DNA of 62,220 nt from positions 1 through 62,220 of the forward strand of contig JAQAZP010000019.1 of the NCBI GenBank assembly GCA_032127265.1, given 5' to 3'. The translations under genes and the position numbers were made by a program. Shown one piece after another: positions 15,383-47,395 of the stretch. Origin of the DNA: Acidobacteriota bacterium (lineage in GTDB: Bacteria; Acidobacteriota; JAQAZP01). How positions within the stretch are numbered: position 1 is the stretch's first letter; each line of letters opens with the position of its first letter. The notes beneath the pieces were generated by a model that saw only the letters and a list, made by a program, of their open reading frames with translations, had not been told where the DNA came from and did no database searches.

Positions 15383-17833
15383 ATGAACCGTGACCCCTCA
15401 GCTTCCACACGTTTCCGCGCGGCCCTGATTTCGGGCGGCGTCAAGATGCTGTTACTGCTGGTTGTCCTGGCCTGCGCGCCAGGCCTTTTTGCCGCTGGTT
15501 TGCCTTATGACAGCACTCCGGACTGGGTCTCCTCGGACACCGAGGTTTCCACCGGCGCGGCGCTGACCGACCTGAACCGGGACGGCTTTCCCGACCTGGT
15601 GGTGGCCAACGGCAACGATATCTACCGCCAGCGCCTGGTGGTCTACTACAACCAGCAGGACGGGACGTTTCCGGACAACCCCGACTGGCAGTCCGACGAC
15701 ATCGATTACCACGGGCACCTCACCGTGGGCGATGTCAACAATGACGGCTGGCCCGATGTGGCCGTCTCGGTCTACATCGGTGCCGCCGGGTTCAGCGAGG
15801 ATGGCAAGGTCAAGCTGTATATGAACAATGGTATCGGCGTGCTGGAAACATCGCCGTCCTGGACGGCGGACCAGGACGTCTACACCTTCCGCTGCGCCTT
15901 TGGCGACATGGACAACGACGGCGACCTCGACCTAGCGGTGGCCTGCGGTGAATCGTATAACAACCGTCCACGATACAACCGGGTCTTCCGCAACAGCGGC
16001 GGCATGCTGGAGACCGCACCGGCCTGGCTCTCCGACGAACTGGATTCCAGTTACGACGTCTCCTGGGCCGACGTGGACCGGGACGGCGATCTCGATCTGG
16101 CCTTCTGCAACTCCGGCGACCCCAACCGGGTCTACTACAACGACGGCGGCATGCTGGCCACCAGCGCCGGCTGGAGTTCGGCCGACACCGCCGAGCAGGA
16201 TGCCAACACCCTGGCCTGGGGTGACGTGACCGGCGACGGCTGGCCGGATCTGGCGGTGGCCGACAACAACCAGCTGGGGGGCAGCGGCCGGTTCAAACTC
16301 TATGTGAACAATGGTTCCGGGAACCTGGGCACCACCCCGGGCTGGACCTCCAGCGAGGGCGGGTACGGTTCCTCGGTGGCCTTCAGTGATGTGGACAACG
16401 ATGGCGACCTCGACCTCTTCTCCGGCCAGTGGTGGGGGCCGGTGCGGGTGCACCAGAACGAGGGCGGAACGCTGAGCGCTTCGGCGGTCTGGGCCTCCAC
16501 CACCGGCAGCGTCGTGGAACGGATCTGCTTCGGTGACGTGGACCAGGACGCGACGCTGGTGCATTCTTATGAGTTCGCCTCCACGCCCGGACGGACGCTG
16601 TATGATCTTCCCCACCGGCCCATTGAAAGCATCATCTCCGTCATCGTTGACGGTGTGGGAACCACCGGCTACTGCACCAGCCTCGAGGACGGATGGATCA
16701 GCCTGGCCGAGGATCCGCTGGGTGTCCAGGTTGTGGTGGTCTACGAGTGGTCCCGCGACCTGGAGATGGCTGTATCCAACTGGGACAGCTCCGTGGGCAA
16801 CTACCTCTTCATAAACAACGGGGCGGGCGAATACGTCGGCCTGATCCTCACCGGCCCGGGCCCCGGCCCGGACAACCCCACCGAAGTGCGCGGATACATC
16901 CCGGGTAATGGCCTGGTTTTCGCCTTTGATGCCTACGGGGTGGATAAATACGGAGTGAACGTCGCTTCCGGCCGCATCGATGGCGAGCCCGGAGACGAGA
17001 TCATCACCGGCCCGGGCCCGGGGGCGGTTTTTGGCCCGCAGGTGCGTGCCTTCACCAGCAGCGGCACGGCGGTGACCGGGGCGTCCTTCCTGGCCTACGG
17101 CACCAATCGCTGGGGCGTCAACGTCTCGGCCGGCGACCTGGACGGAGACGGCAGCGACGAGTTCGTCACCGGCGCCGGGCCGGGCGAGGTGTTCGGCCCC
17201 CATGTGCGTGCGTTCAGCTATGACAGCGGCACGATATCCTCGGTTCCGGGGGTGAGTTATTTCGCTTACGGCACTCCCAAGTGGGGCGTGAACGTCACCT
17301 GCGGGGACATCGACGGCGACGGCTTTGACGAGATCATCACCGGTGCCGGACCGGGCGCGGTATACGGCCCCCACGTAAGGGGCTGGAACGTGGACGGCGG
17401 CCCCGCGGTGTCGATTTCCGCAGTCAGTTTCCTGGCCTACGGCACCAACAAATACGGGGTCAACGTGGCCTGCGGCGACCTGGACGGTGACGGGATTGAC
17501 GAAATCATCACCGGTGCCGGACCTGGCGTGGTTTTCGGTCCCCACGTGCGGGGCTGGAATGTTGACGGCGGTACGGTTACACCGCTCCCGGGCATCAGTT
17601 TCTTTGCCTATGACACCAGCGAATACGGCGTGGAGGTGGGTGCCGGCGACCTGGACGGGGACCTCGTCGACGAGATCCTCACCGGTCAGGGGCCGGGGCC
17701 CGGCTTTACCGCCCGGGTCCGTGGCTGGGACTACGACGGCACGGCGATCAGCGCCATGGGTGAGGTGGATTTCCTGGCCTACCCGGCTTCGGAGGTCGGC
17801 TATGGCGCCAAAGTGGCCTTTCTCGAACAGTGA
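15383..17833 (+). CDS. Secreted FG-GAP/VCBS propeller protein (paralog of 13461..15284) carrying the C-terminal FG-GAP cassette
   Basis: ATG at 15383 follows GGAGG. Signal peptide region: ..GGVKMLLLLVVLACAPGLFAAG. The first ~480 residues are collinear and mostly identical to the upstream paralog. The last ~330 aa are the GPGxVFGPHVR repeat cassette. Confidence 0.85.
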   Translation: MNRDPSASTRFRAALISGGVKMLLLLVVLACAPGLFAAGLPYDSTPDWVSSDTEVSTGAALTDLNRDGFPDLVVANGNDIYRQRLVVYYNQQDGTFPDNPDWQSDDIDYHGHLTVGDVNNDGWPDVAVSVYIGAAGFSEDGKVKLYMNNGIGVLETSPSWTADQDVYTFRCAFGDMDNDGDLDLAVACGESYNNRPRYNRVFRNSGGMLETAPAWLSDELDSSYDVSWADVDRDGDLDLAFCNSGDPNRVYYNDGGMLATSAGWSSADTAEQDANTLAWGDVTGDGWPDLAVADNNQLGGSGRFKLYVNNGSGNLGTTPGWTSSEGGYGSSVAFSDVDNDGDLDLFSGQWWGPVRVHQNEGGTLSASAVWASTTGSVVERICFGDVDQDATLVHSYEFASTPGRTLYDLPHRPIESIISVIVDGVGTTGYCTSLEDGWISLAEDPLGVQVVVVYEWSRDLEMAVSNWDSSVGNYLFINNGAGEYVGLILTGPGPGPDNPTEVRGYIPGNGLVFAFDAYGVDKYGVNVASGRIDGEPGDEIITGPGPGAVFGPQVRAFTSSGTAVTGASFLAYGTNRWGVNVSAGDLDGDGSDEFVTGAGPGEVFGPHVRAFSYDSGTISSVPGVSYFAYGTPKWGVNVTCGDIDGDGFDEIITGAGPGAVYGPHVRGWNVDGGPAVSISAVSFLAYGTNKYGVNVACGDLDGDGIDEIITGAGPGVVFGPHVRGWNVDGGTVTPLPGISFFAYDTSEYGVEVGAGDLDGDLVDEILTGQGPGPGFTARVRGWDYDGTAISAMGEVDFLAYPASEVGYGAKVAFLEQ
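16841..17830 (+). repeat. FG-GAP cassette copy (VCBS-propeller protein)
   Basis: Opening strand LILTGPGPGPDNPTEVRGY. Ca loops: GRIDGEPGDE, GDLDGDGSDE, GDIDGDGFDE, GDLDGDGIDE, GDLDGDLVDE. Closing strand EVDFLAYPASEVGYGAKVAFLEQ-stop. Confidence 0.75.
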
Positions 17834-17857
17834 GCAGCCGCAGGTGATGGGACAGCT

Positions 17858-18748: not shown

Positions 18749-18754
18749 CCCGGA

Positions 18755-19357
18755 CTAGGGATCCGTCGCGATCACCGCAGCGGTGCCGGTATCGGTTTCC
18801 CCACCGGGCCGTGTCGCGGTGACCGTGCAGAAGTCGGTCTGTGTCTCGCCCGCGGGCCAGTACGGGGGCCGGTTATAGGGTGCGGGCGTCACGTCCTTCC
18901 CAAAGAGGATGAAGCGGTTCTCGCCCACCATCGACGGCCTTGGCGGGAGCAGCAGGGGCCAGGTCCGGGCATAGCTCGCCCTGGCGAAATCACCTGGGCC
19001 GCGCAGCCGATGTCCCGACCACCGATCCGTCAGCACTCTGGTTGTGCCTCGGCCGTGCATTCGGAGTGTTCCTCGAGGCCGTAGTCGTCCTTCCCGGCGC
19101 TGCAGAAGATTCGGGTCCACATCGATCATCATCGTCCCCCAGTCGAGGCTCGATTCGTGACCGATTAAACAGGATGCCTGGCCCCACTCCACATCCGAGC
19201 AGTCGATGGCGACACTGTTACCCGGCTCCTCCCTGGCGGCGATGGCAGGTCCCTGGGCCGCGCTGTTGCCCCAGAGGATAATGTTGCCCGGCACTTGGTC
19301 CCGGCGACCATTCTCCGGGATCCGCCGGGGAACCCTGGAGCCGGCACTGGCTCCCAT
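18755..19357 (-). pseudogene. 5'-truncated paralog of the beta-helix protein at 47921..50071: last helix turns plus TPAPYN tail, no signal peptide
   Basis: GNIILWGNSAAQG..VAIDCSDVEWGQ..MIDVDPNL parallels NCIVYGNRALEGG..VRFSHTDLQGGQ..NIDENPLW of the full-length protein. It ends ..FGKDVTPAPYNRPPYWPAGETQTDFCTVTA. The frame stays open upstream to ~19435 without a start codon. Confidence 0.45.
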
Positions 19358-19565
19358 CTCAAACAGGTATCGGCGGAAGTCCAGATTTCGTAAAGGGATA
19401 TTGCCCTTCAGGAACGCCGGGACCGCTGAACTGAATTACGGACTTTACGTCTCTGCCGGTATACGTATAATAACGGGCGTCCGGCGCCGGTGCGCCGGCG
19501 TCCCCGCCAGGGCCGTGTTGGTCCCGGGTGGCCTGGTGAAAGCGGCAACAGCCCGAGGAACGACC

Positions 19566-20363
19566 ATGCCCTCCTTTTTCATGCAGCGGGTTGTCAATCC
19601 CCTGCGGACCCGTCTGAGCTACCTGCATCCCAGCTACTTTGTCTTCCGCCGCATTCAGCAGGCCACCGGATACCTGGTCCACTCGGGACCGTTCAGCGGC
19701 ATGAAATACCTCGGAACCAGTGTGGGCAGCCAGTTTTACCCCAAGATTCTCGGGACCTACGAGAAGGAATTGCATCCTGCCATCGAGAAGCTCTGTTCGA
19801 TGAAATTCGATCACGTGGTCAACGTGGGAGCCGGGGAGGGGTATTATGCCGTCGGTCTGGCCATGCGCATGCCCGGGGCGGGTGTCATCGCTTTCGAATC
19901 GGACGAGGCCGGGCAGGCCTGTACCCGCAGGATGGCACAGGTCAACGGCGTCCAGACCCGGGTCATCATCCATGGGCTGTGCGACATCCCGGCATTTTCT
20001 AACTGCTTCAGCCGCAGCACAAACTGTCTCGTCTTCATGGATGTGGAGGGGGCCGAGAGTCTGCTCCTCGATCCCCACGTGGTTCCCGAACTGTCGGAGG
20101 TTCACATCCTCGTGGAACTGCATGATTTCATCTACCGTCAGATCGGGGACCTGCTCGGTGATCGGTTTGGACAGAGCCACCGAATCACCGAGATCGTGTC
20201 CAAACCACGGACGGTGGCTGATTACCCGTTCCCCATCTCCGCCCTCTTTGCGCGGTTGTGCCGAAAGTATCTTCTCCGCTCCATCAGCGAGAACCGCCCC
20301 GGGCGCATGCGCTGGTTCTATCTCGAACCTCGTCCCTTCCCGGCTTCCGGCCATTCTGCTTGA
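19566..20363 (+). CDS. Class I SAM-dependent (FkbM-like) methyltransferase
   Basis: ATG at 19566 (MPSFFMQRVVNPL) follows GAGGA. Motif I is VVNVGAGEGYYAVGLA, followed by VIAFESDE. The upstream part of the track ORF (from 19206) overlaps the opposite-strand fragment and lacks coding character. Confidence 0.75.
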   Translation: MPSFFMQRVVNPLRTRLSYLHPSYFVFRRIQQATGYLVHSGPFSGMKYLGTSVGSQFYPKILGTYEKELHPAIEKLCSMKFDHVVNVGAGEGYYAVGLAMRMPGAGVIAFESDEAGQACTRRMAQVNGVQTRVIIHGLCDIPAFSNCFSRSTNCLVFMDVEGAESLLLDPHVVPELSEVHILVELHDFIYRQIGDLLGDRFGQSHRITEIVSKPRTVADYPFPISALFARLCRKYLLRSISENRPGRMRWFYLEPRPFPASGHSA

Positions 20364-20478
20364 AACCATTTTGTCCTTTGCCCGGATTCGACGGCCTGTT
20401 AGAATGTCGACCGCCACTGTCCGGGATGCCTCAGCATGATCTGACCGCCGTTTTGGCGGGTCATCAGGGAGTTGTCGC

Positions 20479-22896
20479 TTGAATTATTTCCGTAAAACGT
20501 TGATTTTGCTCACGTTGTTGATCTGTGTTTCCCCCGGCGCTTCAGTCGGCGCTCTGACCGGGGCGGACTCCGGGTTGTTCGCCGAAAAGCCGGACCTGTT
20601 TCGCATCGTGTTGATCGGCGGGGACGACCTTCACGTGCTGGTGGCGATGGATCTCGATATCACCACGGTCCGGCCCGGGCAATACGCCGAGGCATACCTC
20701 GCGGCCGGGGAACGGCTGGAGGTGATGGCCCGGGGCTTCACGGTCTACCCCATTGTGGATACCAGCCGGGAGTATCTGGAGACCATCGGGCAACAGGGCT
20801 TCATCCCCCAGCCGGGGCGTGAATGGACCAGCTATCCCACCTTCAGCGAAATGGAAACCTGGATGCAGGACATGGAGACCTCCTATCCCGGTCTCTGCGA
20901 CCTGTTCAGCATCGGCCAGTCCACCAACGGCCACGACCTCTGGGTGATGAAGATCAGCGACAACGCCGGCACCGAGGAGGCCGAGCCGGAATTCAAATAT
21001 ATCGGCGCGATGCACGGCAACGAGACCCTCTGCGTGCCGCTGCTGCTCAACCTCATCGAGCATCTGCTGGTGAATTACGGCTCCGACCCGGCCATCACCG
21101 CCCTGGTGGACAACCGTGAGATCTTCATCATGCCGCTGATGAACCCTGACGGCTATATCTCGGGCTCGCGTTATAACGCCCAGGGCAGGGATCTGAACCG
21201 TGATTTTCCCGATTTCATCGAAGACCCGGTGAACACACCCGACGGCCGGGGCACCGAGACCCAGCTGGTGATGCTCTGGCAGCTGGAGCAGACGTTCGTG
21301 CTCTCGGCCAACTTCCATACCGGGGCGACGGTGGTGAACTACCCCTGGGATTCCACCTGGGACTACTGCCCGGACGACACGGTCTTCTACAACCTGGCCC
21401 TCGGGTACGCCTCGCGCAACGAGCCGATGTACAACAGTTCCTATTTCGAGGACGGTGTGACCCGGGGCGTCGAGTGGTATATGACCCACGGTTGCATGCA
21501 GGACTGGAATTACTACTGGTATGCCGACTACGATGTGATCATCGAACTGTCCGACCCCTCATCGCCGCCCGCCTCCCAGATCGCCGGCTACTGGGACGAC
21601 AACCGGGAGTCGATGCTCTACCACATCGACCTGGCCGGCAAGGGACTCACCGGCACGGTGACCGATGCGGTCACTGGCCAACCCGTGGCTGCCGAAATCA
21701 CTGTCCAGGGCATCGACATGCCCACCCCGGTGCACTGCGACCCGGATCACGGCAACTATGTCCGGCCGCTCTACACCGGGAGCTACACCGTGACATACAG
21801 CGCGGCTGGATACGAGCCCCAGACATTGAACGATGTCCCCGTAACCTGGGAAGAGGCTACCATCAGGGACATTTCCCTGCTGCCGCTGGATACCGCCAGG
21901 GTGGTGACCGGCCCCGGTCCCGCTTCCGCGAACCCGCCGCTGGTCCGGGTATACAGTGCCCAGGCGCCGGATATGCCCCTAGCTGAATGGTCGGCCTACG
22001 GAACACCTGCCTGGGGCGTGAACCTTGCCGCCGGCGACCTGGACGGCAACGGCCGGGCCGAAGTGATCACCGGTGCCGGGCCCGGCGCGGTGTTCGGCCC
22101 CCATGTCCGTGCCTTTACCCCCACCGGGACTGCAGTATCCGCGGTCAGCTTTCTCGCCTACGGAACCAACAAATTCGGGGTCAACGTCGCTGCCGGCGAT
22201 ATCGACGGTGACGGCAACGATGAGCTTGTCACTGGTGCCGGTCCTGGTGCGGTGTTTGGACCCCACGTCCGTGGGTGGAACGTGGACGGCGGGGTGCCCG
22301 CATCTATTGGCGCCATCAACTTCTTTGCCTACGGCACACCCAAGTGGGGGGTCAACGTGGCCTGTGGCGACATCGATGGCGACGGCTTTGACGAGATTGT
22401 CACCGGTGCCGGACCGGGTTCGGTCTATGGCCCGCATGTCCGCGGCTGGAACTACGATGACGGGGCCATCGCGCCGATCAACGGTGTGAGTCTTCTAGCC
22501 TACGGCACAAACCAGTACGGGGTCAACGTGGCCTGTGGCGACATCGATGGCGACGGCATCGACGAGATCATTGCCGGCCCCGGCCCCGGTGTGGTATTCG
22601 GCCCCCATGTCCGTGCCTGGAACTGGGACGGCAGCGGTTCGGCCACCTCGATCACCGGTGTCAGTTTTTTTGCCTATCCTGGCGCACTTTATGGAGTAAG
22701 GGTCTCCTGTGGCGATGTGGACGGCGACGGGTTCGACGAGATCCTTACCATGCCCGGTCCCGACCCGGACCAGCCGGCCCGGCTGAGGTCCTGGGAGGTG
22801 GACGGCGAATCCGTGGTGGCCGGCAATATTGATTTTGACGCCTTTGCCGACCTCGAACTGGGCCACGGCGGGAACGTGGCTGGCGGCGCCTTTTAG
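20479..22896 (+). CDS. Secreted M14 zinc carboxypeptidase with regulatory (CarboxypepD_reg-like) domain and FG-GAP cassette
   Basis: TTG start with signal peptide MNYFRKTLILLTLLICVSPGASVGA. Zinc site: IGAMHGNETL (HxxE) and ANFHTGATVVNYPWD. Catalytic Glu region: DVIIELSD. Then GLTGTVTDAVTGQPVAAEITVQG (beta-sandwich). Then the cassette. Confidence 0.9.
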   Translation: MNYFRKTLILLTLLICVSPGASVGALTGADSGLFAEKPDLFRIVLIGGDDLHVLVAMDLDITTVRPGQYAEAYLAAGERLEVMARGFTVYPIVDTSREYLETIGQQGFIPQPGREWTSYPTFSEMETWMQDMETSYPGLCDLFSIGQSTNGHDLWVMKISDNAGTEEAEPEFKYIGAMHGNETLCVPLLLNLIEHLLVNYGSDPAITALVDNREIFIMPLMNPDGYISGSRYNAQGRDLNRDFPDFIEDPVNTPDGRGTETQLVMLWQLEQTFVLSANFHTGATVVNYPWDSTWDYCPDDTVFYNLALGYASRNEPMYNSSYFEDGVTRGVEWYMTHGCMQDWNYYWYADYDVIIELSDPSSPPASQIAGYWDDNRESMLYHIDLAGKGLTGTVTDAVTGQPVAAEITVQGIDMPTPVHCDPDHGNYVRPLYTGSYTVTYSAAGYEPQTLNDVPVTWEEATIRDISLLPLDTARVVTGPGPASANPPLVRVYSAQAPDMPLAEWSAYGTPAWGVNLAAGDLDGNGRAEVITGAGPGAVFGPHVRAFTPTGTAVSAVSFLAYGTNKFGVNVAAGDIDGDGNDELVTGAGPGAVFGPHVRGWNVDGGVPASIGAINFFAYGTPKWGVNVACGDIDGDGFDEIVTGAGPGSVYGPHVRGWNYDDGAIAPINGVSLLAYGTNQYGVNVACGDIDGDGIDEIIAGPGPGVVFGPHVRAWNWDGSGSATSITGVSFFAYPGALYGVRVSCGDVDGDGFDEILTMPGPDPDQPARLRSWEVDGESVVAGNIDFDAFADLELGHGGNVAGGAF
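21901..22893 (+). repeat. FG-GAP cassette copy (M14 protein)
   Basis: Opening strand VVTGPGPASANPPLVRVY. Ca loops: GDLDGNGRAE, GDIDGDGNDE, GDIDGDGFDE, GDIDGDGIDE, GDVDGDGFDE. Closing strand NIDFDAFADLELGHGGNVAGGAF-stop. Confidence 0.8.
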
Positions 22897-24087: not shown

Positions 24088-24374
24088 GGCGCCGCTCGAT
24101 CAAAATTGTCCCGCGGCAACGCCGGCCCGGTGCGTCAGGTTCCCCTCCGATATCACCAGAGCGAACCGCTCCGCCACTGTCATGCCGATATGGCTGAATA
24201 CTTTGAACTGGTTGCCTGCTGCGGGATCCGATTGATGCGGCAGGGAACAACCGAGCAGGTATAATCGTTCTTATGGTATGCGTTCCCGAACAGCTGTCGG
24301 GGCGAGTCCGGATCGAGCCGAACCAGGTAGAACAACCGGGAGAAAGGGCTTCCGCATCTCGGGGAGGAGATTTC

Positions 24375-27164
24375 ATGTGCCGCAGAATCACGAAAATTGT
24401 TTTAGTGTGCCTGATCGGATTTATGGCCGCCGTGCCGGCCATGGCCCAGACCAGGGAGATGCCGAAACGTGTCGATGGTGCGCTGGCCTGTCAGCAGGGC
24501 AAAGCGGCGTTCGCCAGGGCCGCGGCGGATTGGAAGAGTCGGTCAACCGACAACTACGATGCGATCTCCTACACCCTGACCATCGATCTCGATATGGACG
24601 CCCGGACCATTACCGCGCAGTGTGACGTGGGGATCGAGAGTACCGAGGCCGGCCTGACCGAATTCACTCTGGATTTTGTCGGCCTCACCGTCACCGGGGT
24701 CATGGAAGGCGGCGGCACTGCCGTGACCTGGACTCACGAAAACGAGGAGCTCCGGATCACGCCCTCGTTACCGATGAGCATCGGCGAATCGCGGATCTTC
24801 TCCATCACTTACGAGGGGACGCCCTCCCGGGGTCTCTTTTTCACAGGCAGCAACGGCGGGACCGCATACACCATGGGCCAGCCCGAGGACGCCCGCTACT
24901 GGTTTCCCTGCCGCGACATCCCCGATGACAAGGCCGAGTGGTACCGCGGCCACATCACCGCCCCTTCCGACCTGCTGGTGGCTTCCAATGGCGACCTCCA
25001 GGGGATCGTGGACAACGGCGACGGCACCAGCACCACCAGCTACTTCCTCGACTACCCGATCCCCAGCTACCTGGTGTCGGTGGCCGTCTCGGACTACGCG
25101 ATTCTGGAACAGACCACGCCCAGCGGTATCCCGATCAAGTCCTTTGTCTACCCCAGCCACTATGACGACGCGGCATTCGACTGGGCCAACATGCCGGCGA
25201 TGTTTGCGTTTTACGAGACTGTGTTCGAGCCCTATCCCTTCGACACCTACGGTCACGCCGTGGCGCCGTTCGGCGGGGCCATGGAAAACGAGACCATGAC
25301 CACCTGGAGCCCGAACCTGGTGGATGGCCAGCGGAGCTATGAGGGCACGGTGGCCCACGAACTGGCCCACCAGTGGTGGGGCGATCTGGTGACCTGCGGC
25401 ACCTGGATGGATATCTGGCTCAACGAGGGATCAGCGACATACTTTGACGCTCTGTTCACCGAGCACTTTTACGGGGACGAGGCGTTCCGCGCCCAGATGA
25501 TCAACAACCGTTGGAGTTACTTCTCGGGTGAAGTGGACTACGAAGGCCGCTTCCCGATCTATGATCCGGACTACATGTGGGGCGGCACGGTCTACCGCAA
25601 GGGCGCCTGGATTCTGCACATGATTCGCAGCCAGGTGGGCTACAACACCTTTGTCGACATCTACCGCGAGTGGGCCGACCGCTACCGCTACGACTCGGCC
25701 ACCACCGCCGATTTCCAGCAGGTGATCGAGGACGTCACCGGCGAGGACTGGGACTGGTTCTTCGACCAGTGGGTTTACATGGCCGGCTACCCCGAATACC
25801 GGGTCAACTGGACCACCTCCGCCGGCAATCTCTACGTCACCATCGATCAGATCCAGGAGGTGGACGCCATCACCCCGCTCTTCGATATGCCGCTGGACCT
25901 GCTGATCCAGACTCCGGGCGGTGATGTGGAGACCACCGTCCATGTGGACCAGCAGTCGGAGACCTTCATCTTCTCCGTGCCGGCCGAGCCGACCCGGGTC
26001 ATTTTCGATCCCGGGCTGAAAGTGCTGTGCAAGATCCAGAGCGAGAACGGCCTGGTGGTGGCCCCGGGCCCGGATTGGGACAACGCTTCAGTGGCCAGGG
26101 CCTTTGACCCCTACGGTGCCCCCCTGGGGCCCGAAATCACGGCCTACGGTGTTCCCCATTTCGGGGCCAATGTGGCGGCCGGTGACGTAGACGGGGACGG
26201 CTACGACGAGATCCTCACCGGTGCCGGTCCGGGACCGGTGTTCGGCGCCCATGTCCGCGGTTTCGAGGTGGACGGTTCACCGCTGGCCGGCCTGAGCTTC
26301 CTGGCCTACGGCACGCCAAAGTGGGGTGTCAATGTCGGTGCCGGGGACTTCGACGGTGACGGGTTTGACGAGATTCTCACCGGTGCTGGTCCGGGAGCCG
26401 TGTTCGGGCCGCACGTTCGTGCTTTCGATTACGATGGCTCGGCGCCCGTGGTGCCGATGCCCAGTGTCTCCTATTTCGCCTACGGCACTCTCCGTTACGG
26501 TGTGAATGTCACCGCCGGTGATATCGACGGCGACGGGTTTGACGAGATCGTCACCGGTGCCGGTCCGGGACCGGTGTTCGGCGCCCACGTCCGGGGCTGG
26601 AATGTTGATGGCGGGCCGGCGGCCGCGATCCCCGCGGCCAGTTTTTTCGCTTACAGCACGCCGCGCTGGGGCGTGAATGTGGCCTGCGGCGACATCGATG
26701 CCGATGGGATGGCCGAGATCATTACCGCTCCCGGTCCCAGTGCGTCTTTCCCCAGCCAGATCCGCGCCTTCAACTATGACGGTTCAGCGGTGACACCCAT
26801 CGACGAAATCAACTTCTTTGTTTTCGGTACCATGTATGGCGCCCGGGTGGGCTCCGGAGACATGGACGGCGACGGCACCGAGGACATCCTCGTCTCCCCC
26901 GGACCCCAACCGGGAATCGGTGCCTGGGCGGTGATCATCACCCTCAATCAGAACGGTCAAGGCGAACTGCACTACGCGTTCGATGCAATCCCGGGCATGA
27001 CGGCAGGTGGCAACCTCGCCGGGGGCCGCTTCCCGCTGGACGGCCGGGCCCGGCACTCTGCTGAGCCTCCGGTGGTGGGGCCGGTCGCGGACCACATGGG
27101 CCGGGGGATTCCCCAACCGCAATATACTGCTTCTGATTTTGCCCCGTGGCCGGTGAAGCATTAG
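24375..27164 (+). CDS. Secreted M1 family aminopeptidase with FG-GAP cassette and short C-terminal extension
   Basis: ATG 24375 follows GGAGG. Signal peptide: MCRRITKIVLVCLIGFMAAVPAMAQ. Exopeptidase motif: GGAMENE. Zinc site: HELAHQWWGD plus WLNEGSATY. The cassette starts at LVVAPGPDWDN. Confidence 0.9.
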   Translation: MCRRITKIVLVCLIGFMAAVPAMAQTREMPKRVDGALACQQGKAAFARAAADWKSRSTDNYDAISYTLTIDLDMDARTITAQCDVGIESTEAGLTEFTLDFVGLTVTGVMEGGGTAVTWTHENEELRITPSLPMSIGESRIFSITYEGTPSRGLFFTGSNGGTAYTMGQPEDARYWFPCRDIPDDKAEWYRGHITAPSDLLVASNGDLQGIVDNGDGTSTTSYFLDYPIPSYLVSVAVSDYAILEQTTPSGIPIKSFVYPSHYDDAAFDWANMPAMFAFYETVFEPYPFDTYGHAVAPFGGAMENETMTTWSPNLVDGQRSYEGTVAHELAHQWWGDLVTCGTWMDIWLNEGSATYFDALFTEHFYGDEAFRAQMINNRWSYFSGEVDYEGRFPIYDPDYMWGGTVYRKGAWILHMIRSQVGYNTFVDIYREWADRYRYDSATTADFQQVIEDVTGEDWDWFFDQWVYMAGYPEYRVNWTTSAGNLYVTIDQIQEVDAITPLFDMPLDLLIQTPGGDVETTVHVDQQSETFIFSVPAEPTRVIFDPGLKVLCKIQSENGLVVAPGPDWDNASVARAFDPYGAPLGPEITAYGVPHFGANVAAGDVDGDGYDEILTGAGPGPVFGAHVRGFEVDGSPLAGLSFLAYGTPKWGVNVGAGDFDGDGFDEILTGAGPGAVFGPHVRAFDYDGSAPVVPMPSVSYFAYGTLRYGVNVTAGDIDGDGFDEIVTGAGPGPVFGAHVRGWNVDGGPAAAIPAASFFAYSTPRWGVNVACGDIDADGMAEIITAPGPSASFPSQIRAFNYDGSAVTPIDEINFFVFGTMYGARVGSGDMDGDGTEDILVSPGPQPGIGAWAVIITLNQNGQGELHYAFDAIPGMTAGGNLAGGRFPLDGRARHSAEPPVVGPVADHMGRGIPQPQYTASDFAPWPVKH
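26052..27032 (+). repeat. FG-GAP cassette copy (M1 protein)
   Basis: Ca loops: GDVDGDGYDE, GDFDGDGFDE, GDIDGDGFDE, GDIDADGMAE, GDMDGDGTED. Closing strand ..AGGNLAGGRF. Unlike the other copies, the ORF continues for ~43 more residues. Confidence 0.75.
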
Positions 27165-35117: not shown

Positions 35118-35732
35118 ATGCATCCTGATGCTCACAGCAAAACCGAGCCGCTGGTGCTGCTGGCCCTCTGCCTGCTGGCCCTGGTCGTCTCCGGAATCGG
35201 GCCCTTCGACCGGGCCACCTGGTGGATGGAAGTGGCCCCGGTGTTCATCGGGATCCCGCTGCTGATCATCACCTGGAACCGCTTCCGTCCCACACCGCTG
35301 CTCTACCGGCTGCTCTTCATCCACGCCCTGATCCTGATTGTCGGTGGACACTACACCTACGCCAGGGTTCCGCCCGGTTTCTGGGTCCAGGAGCTCTTCG
35401 ACCTCGGACGCAACCACTACGACCGGCTGGGGCACCTGGCCCAGGGCTTCATCCCGGCCATCCTGGCCCGCGAACTGCTGCGCAAGCAGGTGCCGGCCCT
35501 GCGAGGCGGCTGGCTCTTCTTCCTCGTCACCTGCGTCTGTCTCGCCTTCAGCGCTTTTTACGAGCTGATCGAGTGGTGGGCGGCACTGGCCGGCGGGGAG
35601 GCCGCCGATTCGTTCCTCGGCACCCAGGGTGATGTCTGGGACACCCAGTGGGACATGCTCCTCGCCCTGCTGGGCGCACTGCTCTCGCTGACCCTGCTCT
35701 CGCGGATTCACGACAGACAGCTGGATCGTTAG
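35118..35732 (+). CDS. DUF2238 (YjdF-like) inner-membrane protein
   Basis: MHPDAHSK..., WWMEVAPVFIGIPLLIITWNRFRPTPLLY, GGHYTYARVP and NHYDRLGHLAQGF are typical of DUF2238. Confidence 0.75.
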   Translation: MHPDAHSKTEPLVLLALCLLALVVSGIGPFDRATWWMEVAPVFIGIPLLIITWNRFRPTPLLYRLLFIHALILIVGGHYTYARVPPGFWVQELFDLGRNHYDRLGHLAQGFIPAILARELLRKQVPALRGGWLFFLVTCVCLAFSAFYELIEWWAALAGGEAADSFLGTQGDVWDTQWDMLLALLGALLSLTLLSRIHDRQLDR

Positions 35733-38722
35733 AAGACGCCCCCGGCGACGGTCCCGCCATGGGAGAGGTTCAGCTCGTCGTAGGCGTCAAAGTCGAGATC
35801 GGGGTTCAACTGCAGCGACCCGCCGTCGGCATCCCAGATCCTGAGCCACGGCAGTGCTTCGGGATCGGGGCCGGGCATGGTGAGGATTTCGGCAAAGCCG
35901 TCACCGTCGGTGTCGGCCGCGCCCACATTGAGCCCATAGAGATACCCGTCGTAGACGAACTGGCTGATTCCCGGGACGGGCGCCACACCGCTTCCGTCGA
36001 AGGTAAAGGCGCGCAGGTGCGGCCCGAACCGGGATCCCGGCCCGGGGCCGGTGATCATTTCGTCCAGGCCGTCACCGTCGATGTCACCGCAGGCGACCGT
36101 CACCCCCCACTGCGGTGTGCCGTAGGCAAAAAAGCTCAGTGCCGGGATCGGAACGGCCGGCCCGCCGTCCACGTTCCAGCCGCGGACATGGGCGCCATAC
36201 ACCGCACCTGGTCCGGCGCCGGTGACGATCTCGTCGACCCCGTCACCGTCGACGTCGCCGCAACTGACGTTGACCCCGTATTTCGGTGTGCCGTAGGCGA
36301 AATAGCTGACCCCGGACAGCGGGTACGTACCGGCCGCGTCCACGGTCCAGCCGCGGACGTGGGGACCGAAAACCGCACCCGGTCCGGCGCCGGTGACGAT
36401 CTCGTCAAACCCGTCACCGTCAAGGTCACCTGCCGCCACGTTGACCCCGTATTTGTTGGTGCCATACGCGAGGAAGTTGATCCGCGACAGCGGTTGTCCC
36501 GATCTGCTGAAGCCGCGGACGTGGGGGCCGTACACGTCGCCCGGTCCGGCGCCGGTGATTATCTCGTCATGGCCGTCACCGTCGGTGTCTCCGGCAGCCA
36601 CGTTCACCCCGTAACGGTCGCGGCTGTACGCCGGCCACTCCCCGAGGCAGGAGATGGCCAGCGCGTCCCAGGCGCGGACCAGCGGCTTGTTGAAGTTGTA
36701 CGGGCCGGGGCCGGTGACGATGAATGGTGACGGCGTTCCGGCGACCATGGTGGCACAGAGCGAGAAGTCCTGGTTGATCCCGGTATTGGGGTGGTTGTCC
36801 AGCGGCACGTCCCAGGCCCGCACTTCCACCGTGTAGATCCCGGCCTCGGGGTTTTCGATGAAGACGTTTTCCACGTTGTTCCGGCGATCGAAGTCACCCC
36901 CATCAACTGACCAGAGGTCATCGATCAGGCCTTGATTGCCCCGATAAACCGTTCCGGAAGGGGAGATGACCCTCAGGTCGAGGTCGTTGACCAGGGCGGG
37001 GTTGGCCATCAGCTCGGCCTCCCGGTCGGCCCAGACCAGGCAGATACGCAGCGGCTCGCCGGCGGCGTACCGCCTCACCTGGAAGGTGCGGCTCTCGCCG
37101 GTGGACAGGGGGTTGCCGCCGTTGACCACCAGCATGTTGCGGCCGGCTGCGTGGACCCGGCTCACGTCGGGTATCCCCCAGCCCTGCTGAAAACGTGTAG
37201 CCCGCTCCAGCGGGTACTGGTTGGCGTGGGCGATGAGGATCGCCTTCACCGTGGCGGTGTGTCCCCGTTCACCCGGGGGCACGGCGCCCAGGTGCCCTTC
37301 CTCGAGCATCTGGTAGACCAGCCCGGCGGCGCCGGCCACCATGGGGCAGGCCCCGCTGGTCCCGCCGAAATCGGTGGTGTAGTCGCCGGCCGCAAGGCCG
37401 GCGGAGCCCACCGGATCGGTGGTGAAGATCTTGTCGAAGTATCCCACCAGGTCGGGTTTGACCCGGCCGTCGGCGGCCGGGCCCTGAGCCGGGGCGCCAC
37501 CGACTATGCGCCAGTCGTCGTCCCCGGGCTCGTCGTTGTCGTAGTGAAAGATGGCGCCCACGCCGATCACGTTTTTTGCACAGGCGTCCTGGGAGATCTT
37601 CATCGGTTCGATGCCGTTGTTCCCGCCGGCATAGAGCATCAGGATGTCGTGGGCGTTGGTCGCCAGGTCGTCTTCCCGGGACATCCCGGTGTAATTACCA
37701 TTGAGGACGCCGCCGGTAAAGCTGTTGCTCTGGAACCGGCCGTCCCACTCCTCGGCCAGGTTGAGTATCGAGTCGGCTCGTCCGACCCGCCAGTCGCAGA
37801 AGACGCCGCTGCCACCGGTCATCATCCCCCGGGCCCTGAGGCTCTGATAGGTTCCGACGCTGCCGTCGGCAAAGACGATGCCGAAGGTGCCGGTGCCGTG
37901 AAGGTCGAAAACAACATCGCCGTGAAGCCCGATCAGGTTGCTGAAATCGGGGTGGGTCAGGTCGATGCCGCTGTCATGGATCTCGCCGACGATGCCGCTC
38001 CCGTCGAAGGCCTGGTGGACGTGCAGGGACCGGGCCCCCATCTGGTAGCGGCCGTTGTCCATCGCTGCCTGCGGCGGGTGCCACTGTTCCACCCAGCGGA
38101 CCCCGGGGAGCCGGGCCAACGGCAACAGGGCCGCCGACGGCACCCGGGCCCGGAGCACCGGGATCGAGAGGTGCTCGGCGATCACCTCGCCGGCATAAGC
38201 GGCCACCAGGTCACGGACCGCGTCACGGTTGCGGTCTCCCGTCTCATCCGGAAAGCACTCCACCCGGGCGACCAGTTCCTCCTGCCGGTTTTGCAGCAGC
38301 AGCGGGTCGATCCGCCAGGCGGCGTGCAGTTCACCGATCCAGCGCACCGTGGACATGGCCCGGACCTGCTCCAGGCGCTGCGCCGGGATTTCGGCGACGT
38401 AGGCATGTTGCGGCACGTATCCCAGCAGCCGGGCCCCGGCGTCCTCCAGGACTTCGATCTCAGCCGACTCCAGCCGCCCGGTGACCTGGACCAGGCGGAT
38501 AGTGTTGTCCGGGGTGGCCCTCAACTCAGCTGGGATCGGCAATTCGCCGGCCAGCGGGTCGAACAGGCCGTACTTCGTGTGGATGGTGAACGGCGAAAGC
38601 CGGTGTCCCGAATTGTCCAGACCGGGGTCCAGGCCCTCCGCCAGGGCGCTGACCGGCGCGGCGGACAGTGTGAGCATCAGGATGATGACGGCTGAGTGCA
38701 GCCTGGGAGTTCGGGTTGTCAT
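35729..38722 (-). CDS. Secreted S8 subtilase with I9-like propeptide(s), P-domain-like region and FG-GAP cassette
   Basis: Signal peptide: MTTRTPRLHSAVIILMLTLSAAPVSALAEG. Catalytic triad context: GEIHDSGIDLTHPDF (Asp), DLHGTGTFGIVF (His), GGTSGACPMVAGAAGLV (Ser). The cassette starts at FIVTGPGPYNFNKP. Confidence 0.9.
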   Translation of the reverse strand: MTTRTPRLHSAVIILMLTLSAAPVSALAEGLDPGLDNSGHRLSPFTIHTKYGLFDPLAGELPIPAELRATPDNTIRLVQVTGRLESAEIEVLEDAGARLLGYVPQHAYVAEIPAQRLEQVRAMSTVRWIGELHAAWRIDPLLLQNRQEELVARVECFPDETGDRNRDAVRDLVAAYAGEVIAEHLSIPVLRARVPSAALLPLARLPGVRWVEQWHPPQAAMDNGRYQMGARSLHVHQAFDGSGIVGEIHDSGIDLTHPDFSNLIGLHGDVVFDLHGTGTFGIVFADGSVGTYQSLRARGMMTGGSGVFCDWRVGRADSILNLAEEWDGRFQSNSFTGGVLNGNYTGMSREDDLATNAHDILMLYAGGNNGIEPMKISQDACAKNVIGVGAIFHYDNDEPGDDDWRIVGGAPAQGPAADGRVKPDLVGYFDKIFTTDPVGSAGLAAGDYTTDFGGTSGACPMVAGAAGLVYQMLEEGHLGAVPPGERGHTATVKAILIAHANQYPLERATRFQQGWGIPDVSRVHAAGRNMLVVNGGNPLSTGESRTFQVRRYAAGEPLRICLVWADREAELMANPALVNDLDLRVISPSGTVYRGNQGLIDDLWSVDGGDFDRRNNVENVFIENPEAGIYTVEVRAWDVPLDNHPNTGINQDFSLCATMVAGTPSPFIVTGPGPYNFNKPLVRAWDALAISCLGEWPAYSRDRYGVNVAAGDTDGDGHDEIITGAGPGDVYGPHVRGFSRSGQPLSRINFLAYGTNKYGVNVAAGDLDGDGFDEIVTGAGPGAVFGPHVRGWTVDAAGTYPLSGVSYFAYGTPKYGVNVSCGDVDGDGVDEIVTGAGPGAVYGAHVRGWNVDGGPAVPIPALSFFAYGTPQWGVTVACGDIDGDGLDEMITGPGPGSRFGPHLRAFTFDGSGVAPVPGISQFVYDGYLYGLNVGAADTDGDGFAEILTMPGPDPEALPWLRIWDADGGSLQLNPDLDFDAYDELNLSHGGTVAGGVF
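35732..36724 (-). repeat. FG-GAP cassette copy (S8 protein)
   Basis: Ca loops: GDTDGDGHDE, GDLDGDGFDE, GDVDGDGVDE, GDIDGDGLDE, ADTDGDGFAE. Closing strand DLDFDAYDELNLSHGGTVAGGVF-stop. 331 aa by my count. Confidence 0.8.
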
Positions 38723-40680: not shown

Positions 40681-40692
40681 CGGACAGGGGCC

Positions 40693-41967: not shown

Positions 41968-42312
41968 TCACGCCCCCGGCCCCCGTCCCGGAGCCATCTG
42001 CGGTGACGGCTGCGGCTCTTCCACCATCCCCTCACCGGCGGCGCTCTCCGGGTCCAGCCACTCCACCGGGTCGCTGTCGATGGGGATCAGCCCCTGGCTC
42101 AGCCTGGCGATGGAGAGGTCGATGGCCTGTTCGTCACGCACCGCTTCCCAGACCTGGAGAACCGGCAAAGCGAGAACCACCGGCTTGAAACTGGCCGGGT
42201 CGTAGAGCTGGCGGATAAAAAGTTGGTTGAAGAGGGTGTCACCGAACTCGGCGCTGCGATTGACGATCCGCGATTCGGCCAGTTTGTCCTCGGGGATGCG
42301 GAAGGCCAGCAT
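41968..42312 (-). CDS. Hypothetical protein (114 aa), no family recognised
   Basis: ORF MLAFRIPEDKLAESRIVNRSAEFGDTLFNQLFIRQLYDPASFKPVVLALPVLQVWEAV... has a plausible globular composition in the first ~90 aa and a low-complexity tail. An in-frame stop lies just upstream, so it may be the C-terminal remnant of a larger gene. Confidence 0.4.
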   Translation of the reverse strand: MLAFRIPEDKLAESRIVNRSAEFGDTLFNQLFIRQLYDPASFKPVVLALPVLQVWEAVRDEQAIDLSIARLSQGLIPIDSDPVEWLDPESAAGEGMVEEPQPSPQMAPGRGPGA

Positions 42313-42351
42313 CTTGAACTGGTCGAAACCCTGGCCGAAGTTGAAGCGGGG

Positions 42352-43008: not shown

Positions 43009-43080
43009 CGTGATCCTCGTTCGATCAGCTCATTATAGCGCAGCAATTTTTCAGGGTCAGGTCGCTTGCTTGCTGACAGG

Positions 43081-44514: not shown

Positions 44515-44560
44515 CGATCTCCGTGCAGCAGGCCGCGGTCCAGCATGTCGCTCTGCCGGA

Positions 44561-47395
44561 TCAGGGCCTGGCTGCCGCCGCGTTGGCCCCGTGGGTCACC
44601 CCGATGTCATAGGCGTCGAAATCGATGCCCGGCATCTGAACCAGGGTGCCGCCGTCGAAATTCCAGCCGCGGATGCAGCTGCCGGCGTTGGGGTCGGGAC
44701 CCTCGCCACTGATGATCTCACAGATGCCGTCACCGTCAAGATCACCGCAGCCCACCCGGACTCCGTATCCCGCTTCACCGTAGGCGAAGAAGCTGACTCC
44801 GGGGATGGCACTGGCCGCGGCGCCCAGGACCTCGAAGGCCCGGATGTGCGTGCCCATGGCCGCGCCCGGTCCGGCCCCGGCGATGATCTCCGCCGCGCCG
44901 TCGCCGTCGATGTCCCCACCGGAGACGTTGACCCCCCAGATCTGGGTGTTGAAGGCCAGGAAGCTCACCCCGGAGGCGGGGGAGGAGGTGCCGTCCACGT
45001 CCCAGCTGCGGATGTGAGCGCCGTAGATCGGGCCTGGTCCGGCCCCGGTGATGATCTCGTCGCGGCCATCGGCGTCGATATCGGCGCAGGCCACGTTGAC
45101 CCCCCACTTGGGTGTGCCGTAGGCGAAGAAGCTCACCCCGGCCATGGCCGTCAACGTGGTGCCGTCATAGTTCCAGCCGCGCACGTGGGGGCCGAAAACA
45201 GAACCCGGGCCGGCGCCGGTGACGATTTCGTCGATGCCGTCACCGTCGATGTCGCCGCAGGCCACGTTCACTCCGAACCTGTGGGTGCCGTAGGCCTGGA
45301 AGCTCACCGCCGGGATGGGCGTGCCGTTCATCTCGAAGGCGCGGACATGTGGGCCGAAGACTTCTCCCGGGCCGGGGCCGGTGACGATCTCGTCGATCCC
45401 GTCACCGTCGATGTCGCCCAGCGCCACGTTGGTCCCGAACTTGTTCACCCCGTAGGCATTGAAGGCGGCGGTTGGTCCGGCGGCCAGGTTGGCGCTGTTG
45501 TAAACCCGCACCTCGGTGGGGTTGTTCTCCCCGGGGCCGGCGCCGGTGACCAGGTTGCCGGTGGGAGCGGATGTCTCACCGAGGCCCAGGTCGGGGTTGC
45601 CCCAGAGGGTCCACTCGAAGATCTCGAATTTATCGTCGTACCACAGGCCGTTGACGTAGTTCTGGCGCAGGGAATACTGGTGCGCCTCGCCCTGGGTCAT
45701 TTCGGTGGAGGTGACCTTGGTGGTGAACCAGTAGTCGCAGGACTGGGTCGAGCCGTCATAGGGGTCGTTCCAGCCGCCGCTGCCGTAGGCCACCTTGGTG
45801 GCGCCGACGAAACCCACCGCACCGCTCTTCAGCATCTCGCGGCCGATGTTCGCCTCGTCGGTGTCGCTGTTCGAGCAGGCGTCGGCCCAGATGATCGCCG
45901 GGTAGTCGTCGTTGAGCTGGCTGCAGTCGCTGCTGTCGATGAAGGCCGGTGCTCCGTAGCCCATGATGTGACTCGAGCGGTACGAGCCATGGCCCGCGTA
46001 GTTGACGAAGCAGAAACTGCCGTTGGCCCAGACGTCCATCACGTTGGCATGGGTCATTTCGTAATCGCAGGAGAAGGTGGAGTAGACGGTGCTGTTCTGT
46101 TCATACATCCTGACCGAGGTCCAGTCGGACATCCAGGGCTGGTCCCACTTGGCTTCCATCAACTCGGCGGTGTCGGTGTCTGCCCAGAAAAAAGAGCCGA
46201 GGAGCAGGATGTTCTTCTTGAACGCCGGGTCGCTGTTCAGCTCGAAAGCCGCCGACTTGGCACAGATGCTTGAGACCGCGGCCGCATCGCTCCAGGGGAT
46301 GCGGCCCACATTGACCTCGTTGTAAAGGTCCACGTTGTCGCTGTTTTCACCGTAACGGTGGTTGCCGTTGGAATCCCAGGAGTCGCCGTCGGCCTCGGAC
46401 AGCTCGGCAAAGTAGAAGTCGGTTCGCGGCTTGCCGTATCCGATATCCTGCCAGGCCTGGCGCATCGGCACCTGGTCGTGGTGGCCTACCACCAGCACGT
46501 CACGGATGCCCCACTCCGAGGAGGGGTACTTGTCACGAAGGAAATTGCGGATCTGCTCCGCCTCGTCATAGCCGCTGTAGTTGGCGTAGATCCATTCCAC
46601 GGTCACCACTTCGGGGGTCCGTCCCTTGGCCGCTTCGTGGCTGACCAGTGCGGTGACGCTGGAGGAGAGCGCCTCGGTGGTGATCAGCACGAAGTCCTTG
46701 GTCGTCCCCGGTGCCGTAGTCTCGGGATACCAGGCCTGGGCCTGGTTGTAGTTGAGGATCACGCTCTTTGCGGTCTTCTCCATCTGCGGGACGCTGTCCT
46801 CGACGGCCATCCGGCCGCTGCCGTCGGCAAGGGTGTACTCCACCGTCACATCCAGCACGGCGTAGTGGTAGAGCGTTCCCGACAGTGGGTGATAGCGAAA
46901 AGGCGCCACGCGGACGTCGGCCAGGTTGTACTTGCGCAATCCGGCCCGGCGAACGAACTGCACCGGGCTGACCGGCCAGCCCTGGTCGCTGGAGTAGATG
47001 CCGTCTCTGGTGGCCGTCCACTCTGCCAGCTGCCGTGCACGGATCTCTGGTTTCTCCTCGCCGATTACCCGGGGCAGCCCGGCCGGCTCGATGGCGAAGG
47101 TGCCGGGCATGGCAACAGCCTTGCCCTGGAAGCTCACCCCGGTGACCACCGCGCCTGGCGGCACGGCGATGGCAAAGATCTTGCCCGGAAGCCGCGGTCC
47201 GCCGGGGGTGCCCACCACACCGAACCCCTCGAGGTTCAGCTCGACGCTGCCGCCTGCTTTGGTGAAGCGAAACTCGCCGGCTTCGATACGGCAGGTGACG
47301 CTGCCGGTGGTGTCCGCGGTGGCCGGAACAACGGCGCACAGGACGGCGGCCACGCACACGAGGCGGATTGACCACGAACGCGCAATTCTACTCAT
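44561..47395 (-). CDS. Secreted C25 (gingipain-like) cysteine peptidase with FG-GAP cassette
   Basis: I prefer the ATG at 47395 (MSRIARSWSIRLVCVAAVLCAVVPATADT signal). C25 hallmarks: FVLITTEAL.., VLVVGHHDQVP, FYFAEL..DLYNEVNVGRIP, catalytic His region NYAGHGSY, Cys region IIWADACSNS. The cassette starts at LVTGAGPGENNP. Confidence 0.85.
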   Translation of the reverse strand: MSRIARSWSIRLVCVAAVLCAVVPATADTTGSVTCRIEAGEFRFTKAGGSVELNLEGFGVVGTPGGPRLPGKIFAIAVPPGAVVTGVSFQGKAVAMPGTFAIEPAGLPRVIGEEKPEIRARQLAEWTATRDGIYSSDQGWPVSPVQFVRRAGLRKYNLADVRVAPFRYHPLSGTLYHYAVLDVTVEYTLADGSGRMAVEDSVPQMEKTAKSVILNYNQAQAWYPETTAPGTTKDFVLITTEALSSSVTALVSHEAAKGRTPEVVTVEWIYANYSGYDEAEQIRNFLRDKYPSSEWGIRDVLVVGHHDQVPMRQAWQDIGYGKPRTDFYFAELSEADGDSWDSNGNHRYGENSDNVDLYNEVNVGRIPWSDAAAVSSICAKSAAFELNSDPAFKKNILLLGSFFWADTDTAELMEAKWDQPWMSDWTSVRMYEQNSTVYSTFSCDYEMTHANVMDVWANGSFCFVNYAGHGSYRSSHIMGYGAPAFIDSSDCSQLNDDYPAIIWADACSNSDTDEANIGREMLKSGAVGFVGATKVAYGSGGWNDPYDGSTQSCDYWFTTKVTSTEMTQGEAHQYSLRQNYVNGLWYDDKFEIFEWTLWGNPDLGLGETSAPTGNLVTGAGPGENNPTEVRVYNSANLAAGPTAAFNAYGVNKFGTNVALGDIDGDGIDEIVTGPGPGEVFGPHVRAFEMNGTPIPAVSFQAYGTHRFGVNVACGDIDGDGIDEIVTGAGPGSVFGPHVRGWNYDGTTLTAMAGVSFFAYGTPKWGVNVACADIDADGRDEIITGAGPGPIYGAHIRSWDVDGTSSPASGVSFLAFNTQIWGVNVSGGDIDGDGAAEIIAGAGPGAAMGTHIRAFEVLGAAASAIPGVSFFAYGEAGYGVRVGCGDLDGDGICEIISGEGPDPNAGSCIRGWNFDGGTLVQMPGIDFDAYDIGVTHGANAAAARP
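44564..45553 (-). repeat. FG-GAP cassette copy (C25 protein)
   Basis: Ca loops: GDIDGDGIDE (twice), ADIDADGRDE, GDIDGDGAAE, GDLDGDGICE. Closing strand GIDFDAYDIGVTHGANAAAARP-stop. 330 aa by my count. Confidence 0.8.

Follow-up and report, generated by a model that had tools for sequence, protein, structure and literature searches.

A predicted six-bladed FG-GAP propeller recurs as a C-terminal cassette on unrelated secreted proteins of a lineage labelled Acidobacteriota

Results

The DNA analysed here, a stretch of 62,220 nucleotides from an assembly labelled Acidobacteriota bacterium (GCA_032127265.1, contig JAQAZP010000019.1) and referred to as the window, encodes five putatively secreted proteins (A-E) that share a C-terminal module of FG-GAP repeats, termed here the cassette. 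Such a module had been proposed in a first-pass annotation made from the sequence alone, and alignment bears the proposal out: the tails of A-E are collinear over ~330 amino acids (aa), with pairwise identities of 51-62%. A hidden Markov model (HMM) built from the five tails and run against the six-frame translation of the window recovered exactly A-E (E 1e-166 to 1e-181). Pfam likewise confirmed the FG-GAP identity of the repeats, with matches to FG-GAP or FG-GAP_3 in all five tails; in proteins B-E these matches are confined to the tail (whole-protein E 1e-11 to 1e-18 for PF01839/PF13517). Within the six-frame translation the HMM matched neither the VCBS head of protein A itself nor a neighbouring FG-GAP_3 gene, indicating that the cassette is a distinct subfamily and not generic FG-GAP sequence.

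The open reading frames (ORFs) of the window were listed and translated, heads were assigned by Pfam, and catalytic motifs were judged by eye (Table 1). The assignments agree with the earlier description of four peptidase clans plus one non-catalytic propeller. The motif HGNE is seen in protein B, GAMEN and HELAHQWWG (HExxH) in protein C, D/H/S boxes in protein D, and H and C boxes in protein E. Protein E scores 26.8 bits against the PorU model (cutoff 420), which reflects merely its C25 fold. Two of the ORFs probably begin at internal start codons, A at an ATG near 15383 or 15446 and E at 47395, where an ATG begins the signal peptide MSRIARSW.... Past a plausible internal start, each of the five N-termini shows by eye a positively charged, hydrophobic, AxA-type segment, and the Sec-type signal peptides attributed to all five proteins are thus plausible.

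Table 1. Cassette proteins, genes with the alternative C-terminal module (tail B, described below) and other features of the window
Feature	Position	Strand	Description
Protein A	15326-17833	+	835 aa; signal peptide, VCBS/FG-GAP_3 head, cassette 16832-17833
Protein B	20479-22896	+	805 aa; signal peptide, Peptidase_M14, CarboxypepD_reg, cassette 21892-22896
Protein C	24273-27164	+	963 aa; signal peptide, Peptidase_M1_N, Peptidase_M1, cassette 26043-27032, extension 27033-27164
Protein D	35729-38722	-	997 aa; signal peptide, Peptidase_S8 head, cassette 35729-36733
Protein E	44561-47548	-	995 aa; Propeptide_C25, Peptidase_C25 head, cassette 44561-45565
VCBS-head tandem paralogue of A	13401-15284	+	directly upstream of A; tail B 14922-15284
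Beta-helix/NosD protein beside E	47921-50071	-	tail B about 47939-48298
Remnant beta-helix and tail B gene	18755-19357	-	tail B about 18806-19072
ORF over the decayed gene	19206-20363	+	385 aa
Second C25 peptidase	50088-53951	+	1287 aa
Sensor histidine kinase	1-5031	-	
Sensor histidine kinase	9110-11950	-	
Sensor histidine kinase	11951-13300	-	
Sensor histidine kinase	30021-32027	+	

Five Dx(D/N)xDG-type loops, corresponding to the cation motif of loop AB, are present in each tail, with a spacing of 54/57/57/57 (+/-1) residues in A-E. The count of five loops per copy given by the first-pass annotation therefore stands, although some are degenerate (GRIDGEPG in A; DIDADG in C and E). B and D show the closing motif HGGxVAGGxF clearly, C has it in recognisable form, and in A and E it has diverged. 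Similarly, the cassette forms the extreme C-terminus of A, B, D and E as claimed, whereas the ORF of C does not end at about 27032, where the cassette stops, but continues for 41 aa. The same blade compared across paralogues is 59% identical versus 50% for different blades inside one protein, which indicates that the cassette spread as a whole unit instead of being amplified anew in individual genes. Nucleotide identity between the copies amounts to 68-73%, with exact matches of at most 38 nucleotides.

The same fusions of head and tail are present in relatives, where B corresponds to P0129, C to P0148 and L009, and D to P0146. The best match to the tail of B (78.5% identity) and to that of C (84.6%) is in each case the tail of the corresponding head orthologue, and L009, a metagenome-assembled genome (MAG), is 80% identical to C from end to end. 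Gene order is retained as well. The 133-kb JGI contig L084 has the order seen in the window, from A through a CDF transporter, M14, Rieske, DUF2231, M1, AlkZ, rubrerythrin, a histidine kinase and a phosphodiesterase to S8; in the more distantly related ENA contig L083 the order is largely retained. Because the same fusions occur in the same order in independent assemblies (L084 from JGI, L083 from ENA and the MAG L009), assembly chimeras, raised at the outset as a possible source of the copies, are excluded. Recent gene conversion between the copies was also considered, and is ruled out by their DNA identity together with the orthologous fusions. The 41-aa extension of C (PLDGRA...PVVGPVA...APWP...) is itself conserved in orthologues: 43 residues follow the cassette in P0148, L083 and L084, and L009 also keeps the extension. 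Only here is there a conserved departure from the cassette as extreme C-terminus.

An exhaustive profile search of 1.84 billion representative proteins (clusters at 50% identity) returned 17,446 matches at E<=1e-3, 7,973 at E<=1e-10 and 1,937 at E<=1e-30, so that the HMM which recovers only A-E in the window delineates a distinct family in databases. Architecture statistics were taken from 141 of the best 150 representatives of the exhaustive search, since a word-indexed homologue search listed proteins of <=580 aa only. Nearly all of them carry a single full-length cassette, which is 320-349 aa long in 138/141 and ends 0-9 residues from the C-terminus in 137/141; a signal-like N-terminus is found in 123/141, and the terminal residue is Phe in just 49/141. 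As the scoring does not impose the C-terminal position, this position genuinely characterises the family. PF01839 is matched by 55/55 sampled relatives. Against NCBIfam the cassette has no match even at E<=10, no curated family or published description of it was found, and the FG-GAP literature searched together with sorting, the type IX secretion system (T9SS), Acidobacteria or peptidase yielded nothing relevant, in keeping with the earlier statement that no described display or docking system based on such a cassette was known.

Species-representative genomes were scanned with a pattern-seeded search, and the taxonomic range is accordingly a lower bound. Among the matches listed, only two MAGs combine full coverage, C-terminal position and at least 390 bits: 'uncultured Acidobacteriota bacterium MFD03804.bin.1.167', with at least 18 cassette genes, four of them in the 13-kb locus L001, and 'uncultured bacterium SRR7614707_binner13_Refined_28', with at least 8. 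Scores in Acidobacteriota STL-ACI10 are intermediate (200-310 bits), and the remaining matches listed (Gemmataceae, candidate phyla radiation, others) score <215 bits, with partial coverage and at arbitrary positions.

Heads were surveyed in the cassette proteins of the two MAGs and in the 55 sampled representatives. The commonest is beta-helix/NosD/PMP. Peptidase heads comprise C25, C11, trypsin-like S1, M1, M14 and M28, and other enzyme heads are GDSL lipase and 5'-nucleotidase/metallophosphatase. BNR/sortilin, ASPIC/UnbV and FG-GAP_2 occur as heads too, further heads are Lcl_C, DUF362, BACON and Invasin_D3/fn3, and several heads have no Pfam match. Within the lineage labelled Acidobacteriota the cassette is thus carried by peptidases of at least seven families, and the diversity of its heads exceeds that of the five window proteins. 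Constant length, blade number and position, spread as a unit and diverse heads together uphold the initial view of a discrete portable module as opposed to generic repeat expansion. In the 40 residues upstream of the cassette, 215 relatives share no conserved linker or cleavage motif. Lysine is nearly absent from the same regions (0.5%), and Gly, Asp and Ala are enriched.

To describe the fold, AlphaFold2 was run on the five-sequence alignment and Foldseek was used against the PDB. The cassette model (predicted local distance difference test score, pLDDT, 87.8; predicted template-modelling score, pTM, 0.90) contains 24 regularly spaced strands, corresponding to six four-stranded blades, of which five are full units and one is split. 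In the VCBS convention, which places the Ca motif in loop AB (PMC8023676), the strand order is B-C-D, then five A-B-C-D blades, then a final strand A. The sixth blade is thus predicted to be closed by the C-terminal strand A joining the three N-terminal strands B, C and D. The closed propeller with a blade divided between the chain ends, suggested earlier, is recovered by this prediction, but with six blades and not five. Since the chain termini lie at the place of the sixth AB loop, exactly five Ca loops are expected; entry and exit of the chain at this site would, from general propeller topology, attach the head on the Ca-loop face and leave the opposite face free.

Propellers dominate the Foldseek matches. 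The top match is the UmbA4 propeller of Streptomyces umbrella toxins (9oee_A, E 2.8e-7, TMq 0.56), and the lectin propeller 2bwm has E 3.2e-6 and TMq 0.48. Six-bladed Kelch propellers (best target-normalised template-modelling (TM) score, up to 0.70), PVL lectin, integrin alpha and PL11 lyase are further neighbours. In a sequence search of solved structures, integrin alpha alone was detected (E ~4e-4). UmbA4 is a six-bladed lectin with Ca-loop positions conserved across its blades, and binds teichuronic acid (PMC13274773). More generally, VCBS-like propellers typically bind carbohydrates, and in PVL and tachylectin the D-to-A loop makes the sugar pocket (PMC8023676; PMC9218822). The equivalent loop of the cassette reads YGTxK(W/Y/F)G. 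In an alignment of 200 cassettes, per-position conservation of the B-C loops (3.24 bits) and of the D-A loops (2.94 bits) was close to that of the core strands and the Ca loops (average 3.13 bits), and the variable parts were the C-D loops (2.16 bits) and the outer strand D (2.30 bits).

Secreted proteins consisting of little else than the cassette also exist. P0100, P0111 and P0094 comprise a signal peptide, ~10 residues and one cassette, and are conserved; the gene of P0100 (L085 4001-5155) is complete and lies on a contig of 120 kb, which stems from the metagenome that also yielded the syntenic relative. Their linker is a short DDFGYIGSxGTPY, and in the first Ca loop the motif Gly and the last Asp are replaced, giving GQLD(D/G)D(L/P). 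Such proteins without cargo argue against a pure sorting tag and for an autonomous binding domain. Other candidates for solo cassettes (P0002, P0024, P0041 and others, 330-350 aa, starting at the cassette) were rejected as mostly frameshift fragments, their loci showing fragmented, overlapping gene calls in a long-read MAG. The cassette genes of MFD03804.bin.1.167 are often split by apparent frameshifts (L001 3776-6999, L002 4220-6810), and such splits create false 'cassette-only' proteins devoid of signal peptides in databases.

A second C-terminal module, tail B, which is likewise lineage-specific, alternates with the cassette on paralogous heads. It is ~115 aa long, strictly C-terminal, carries the motif EDVTPAPYNQPPYPAAGD and ends in ...AP. 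AlphaFold2 models it as an Ig-like sandwich (pLDDT 96). Neither Pfam nor NCBIfam gave a match, and Foldseek found only generic Ig/FnIII/CARDB-like domains (best TM 0.72, an FnIII domain of RbmA). Its heads are VCBS, beta-helix and S8. In the window, similarity between protein A and its tandem paralogue stops exactly at the tail boundary (...AVSNWDSxxGNYLFxNG), and beta-helix/NosD heads, which beside protein E bear tail B, carry the FG-GAP cassette in related genomes. A third copy lies in a remnant (region 18755-20417(-)) of which only the C-terminal ~220 aa survive; an intact syntenic gene is present in L083 (5024-6661(-)), and the region is probably a decayed gene. The 385-aa ORF that overlies it has no Pfam match and looks spurious. 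Elsewhere, tail B occurs in L018 (4145-6730), L024 (5116-6675), L006 (4351-5889(-)) and L016 (5572-6915(-)), and three times in L083 (3-1547, 5027-6787(-), 10539-13277), which holds an S8 peptidase with this tail.

No operon or partner gene accompanies the cassette genes in the window, where the neighbours are unrelated housekeeping genes. The second C25 peptidase, divergent beside the beta-helix gene, has neither tail, and its C-terminal ~640 aa give weak CARDB, Ig-like and CarboxypepD_reg matches only. Four sensor histidine kinases are encoded in the 62 kb; one of them, a hybrid kinase cut off by the window start, exceeds 1677 aa and combines Reg_prop/Y_Y_Y propellers with GAF and two receiver domains.

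Discussion

The cassette is a lineage-specific, sharply bounded and uncurated subfamily of the FG-GAP/VCBS superfamily, six-bladed according to the predicted structure. The reading that we favour, with roughly even confidence, is that it is a Ca-stabilised, multivalent, lectin-like and non-catalytic module that would tether many exoproteins to one common ligand. In this model, the Ca2+-stabilised six-bladed propeller would bind a single repetitive ligand, most likely a glycopolymer of the envelope or matrix. Duplication of the whole cassette would have placed it at the C-termini of numerous Sec-exported proteins of an uncultured lineage labelled Acidobacteriota, such that a mixture of exoenzymes and adhesins may be held at the surface or matrix of the producer, or on a common target surface. 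Tail B would take the place of the cassette on members of the same head families, presumably to bind another ligand. Proteins, lipids or nucleotides are the substrates of the enzymatic heads, other heads are adhesin-like, and what they have in common is hence a location and not a substrate, which favours tethering over the substrate targeting typical of carbohydrate-binding modules.

A broader proposal, which we regard as doubtful though worth stating, is that the cassette and tail B form a hitherto undescribed display system of two interchangeable modules, which would address dozens of Sec-exported enzymes and adhesins per genome to defined receptors in the envelope or matrix. Such a system would be the diderm equivalent, by non-covalent attachment, of anchoring through choline-binding/CWB2 modules or of the display of T9SS cargo.

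Several observations weigh against tethering to a common ligand. Fold similarity to lectins is moderate (TM 0.5-0.6), and PVL and UmbA are absent from the sequence matches in the PDB, even at E<=10. The loops were placed on faces from general propeller topology, and conservation of the B-C loop GAGPGxVFGPH may have solely structural reasons. The near-absolute C-terminal placement is unusual, as ordinary binding modules vary in position and copy number. Finally, a periplasmic location of the cassette proteins is possible.

The alternative that survives best, although we consider it improbable, is an exclusively intramolecular role, in which the cassette would promote Ca-dependent folding, stability or solubility, or would gate or auto-inhibit its head, and would have no external ligand. 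Substrate gating by propellers is known from S9 and tricorn peptidases, secreted proteases are often assisted in folding by extensions at their C-terminus, and five Ca loops per module would suit such a role. However, a common internal partner is unlikely for heads that are unrelated and in part not enzymes, the cassette also exists by itself in secreted proteins, and the loops on the presumed head-distal face, assigned from general topology, are conserved.

Somewhat less probable again is a sorting signal, recognised by a dedicated machinery for outer-membrane translocation or attachment that perhaps removes the cassette or processes it covalently. The first-pass annotation had read the cassette as a sorting, surface-retention or docking tag. 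Its constant size, near-strict C-terminal position and mixed Sec-exported cargo speak for sorting, as does the alternation with a second strictly C-terminal module, and the spectrum of C25, M14 with CarboxypepD_reg, and beta-helix/PMP cargo resembles that of the T9SS. Yet the residues upstream of the cassette hold no conserved linker or cleavage motif in the 215 relatives, the terminal residue varies, M1 orthologues keep 41-43 aa past the cassette, and secreted proteins with the cassette alone exist. There is no candidate machinery within the window, no curated sorting-domain model was matched, and at 330 aa the cassette is predicted to be a fully folded, lectin-like propeller whose nearest solved relatives are lectins and adhesion propellers. 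The sorting part of the earlier reading is thus not supported, whereas non-covalent surface retention or docking is plausible and enters into the reading favoured here.

Docking in the narrower sense, with the cassette plugging enzymes onto a protein scaffold or surface layer (S-layer) in the manner of dockerin and cohesin, is in our judgement a shade less likely still. Propellers commonly serve protein interaction, as in integrin alpha and Kelch, one conserved face is common to all paralogues, and cassette genes cluster, with five in the window and four in L001. Against this, no gene for a scaffold with multiple receptors was found in the window or the loci examined, the cassette bears no resemblance to dockerin, and solo cassettes would compete for the scaffold. 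The last alternative, an assembly or annotation artefact of chimeric joins through repeated DNA, is suggested by a metagenome-like source and by cassettes that are repeats with short exact DNA matches, but has a negligible chance of being correct given the divergence of the copies and the identical fusions and gene order in L084, L083 and L009.

If the secretome is indeed tethered to one ligand, this would show how an uncultured soil or sediment lineage keeps peptidases, lipases and nucleotidases near the cell, with a bearing on the loss of public goods and on the turnover of dead microbial biomass. A propeller-based anchoring module would then join the short list of bacterial devices for protein display, and could provide a portable Ca-dependent affinity module. 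At minimum, the cassette defines a clean uncurated domain family of about 1,900 clusters at 50% identity, which merits its own profile because current annotation shows scattered generic FG-GAP repeats only.

The functional model favoured for the cassette is that of the shared wall-anchoring modules of Gram-positive bacteria. Choline-binding repeats, CWB2, SLH and GW each represent one repetitive module that tethers unrelated surface enzymes to an envelope glycopolymer; they differ from the cassette in having unrelated folds, monoderm hosts, and variable N- or C-terminal position and repeat number. Among systems that place a common domain on mixed peptidases, the T9SS C-terminal domain (CTD) of Bacteroidota is likewise strictly C-terminal, with Sec-exported peptidases (C25, M14) and adhesins as cargo and tens of cargo proteins per genome. 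This CTD measures ~80-100 aa, folds as an Ig-like sandwich and is removed through cleavage by PorU, whereas the cassette is a predicted 330-aa propeller that also occurs solo, has only FG-GAP-type Pfam matches and matches no NCBIfam CTD model (E<=10); no machinery of the PorU/PorV/SprA type is encoded within the window. The PPC/PKD domains and dockerins resemble the cassette as accessory C-terminal domains common to peptidases of several clans, and dockerin binds Ca. These are domains of 60-100 aa with other folds, PPC is usually cleaved, and dockerin needs a cohesin scaffold. No Pfam match to dockerin, a ~70-aa duplicated Ca F-hand, was found in A-E, whose cassette is predicted to be a propeller.

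Tails of the PEP-CTERM, LPXTG or GlyGly-CTERM type do not apply to A-E, since their C-termini form a beta-strand (...HGGxVAGGxF and variants) and no hydrophobic helix. The autotransporter was considered as well on account of the ~300-aa all-beta C-terminus, the terminal Phe and the beta-helix, S8 and GDSL passengers. It was rejected, because the predicted strands are 5-10 residues long and lie in a propeller and not in a 12-stranded membrane barrel, no Pfam match to an autotransporter domain was obtained, and the Phe is not general.

The remaining comparisons are with propellers. Integrin alpha and bacterial FG-GAP propellers (PF01839; Chouhan et al. 2011, PMC3192720) share the FG...GAP repeats and DxDxDG Ca hairpins with the cassette. 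They have seven blades and close through an N-terminal outer strand, in contrast to the six blades and C-terminal strand A predicted for the cassette, and they are not known to serve as a portable module at the C-terminus. PVL- and tachylectin-like VCBS lectins belong to the same supercluster, and, as in the cassette proteins, a signal peptide is present, loop AB holds the Ca motif and the D-to-A loop contains an aromatic residue (PMC8023676). They differ in having 5 or 7 blades, and a strict C-terminal cassette over dozens of cargo families has not been reported for them. Closest in fold are the UmbA lectin propellers of the Streptomyces umbrella toxins (families 6BP1-4, PDB 9oee), which are also six-bladed with conserved Ca-loop positions and, within a secreted protein, follow a domain of peptidase fold on its C-terminal side; the ligand of UmbA4 is a glycopolymer of the cell surface. 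A relation in sequence is not detectable, the TM score is only 0.56, and the UmbA lectins have diversified to many specificities, unlike the cassette, which is conserved across paralogues on many unrelated heads. Judged by sequence, the cassette is not a member of any described lectin family; in its proposed action it would most resemble the lectin propellers of UmbA, PVL and tachylectin type that are joined to secreted proteins. Propeller lectins, bacterial ones included, are often joined to secreted enzymes or catalytic domains (Pereira and Lupas 2021, PMC8023676), and to that extent the arrangement is already known. What is new is the clearly delimited six-blade subfamily, its near-absolute C-terminal placement in about 1,900 clusters, the very broad cargo, and the interchange with a second module in one lineage.

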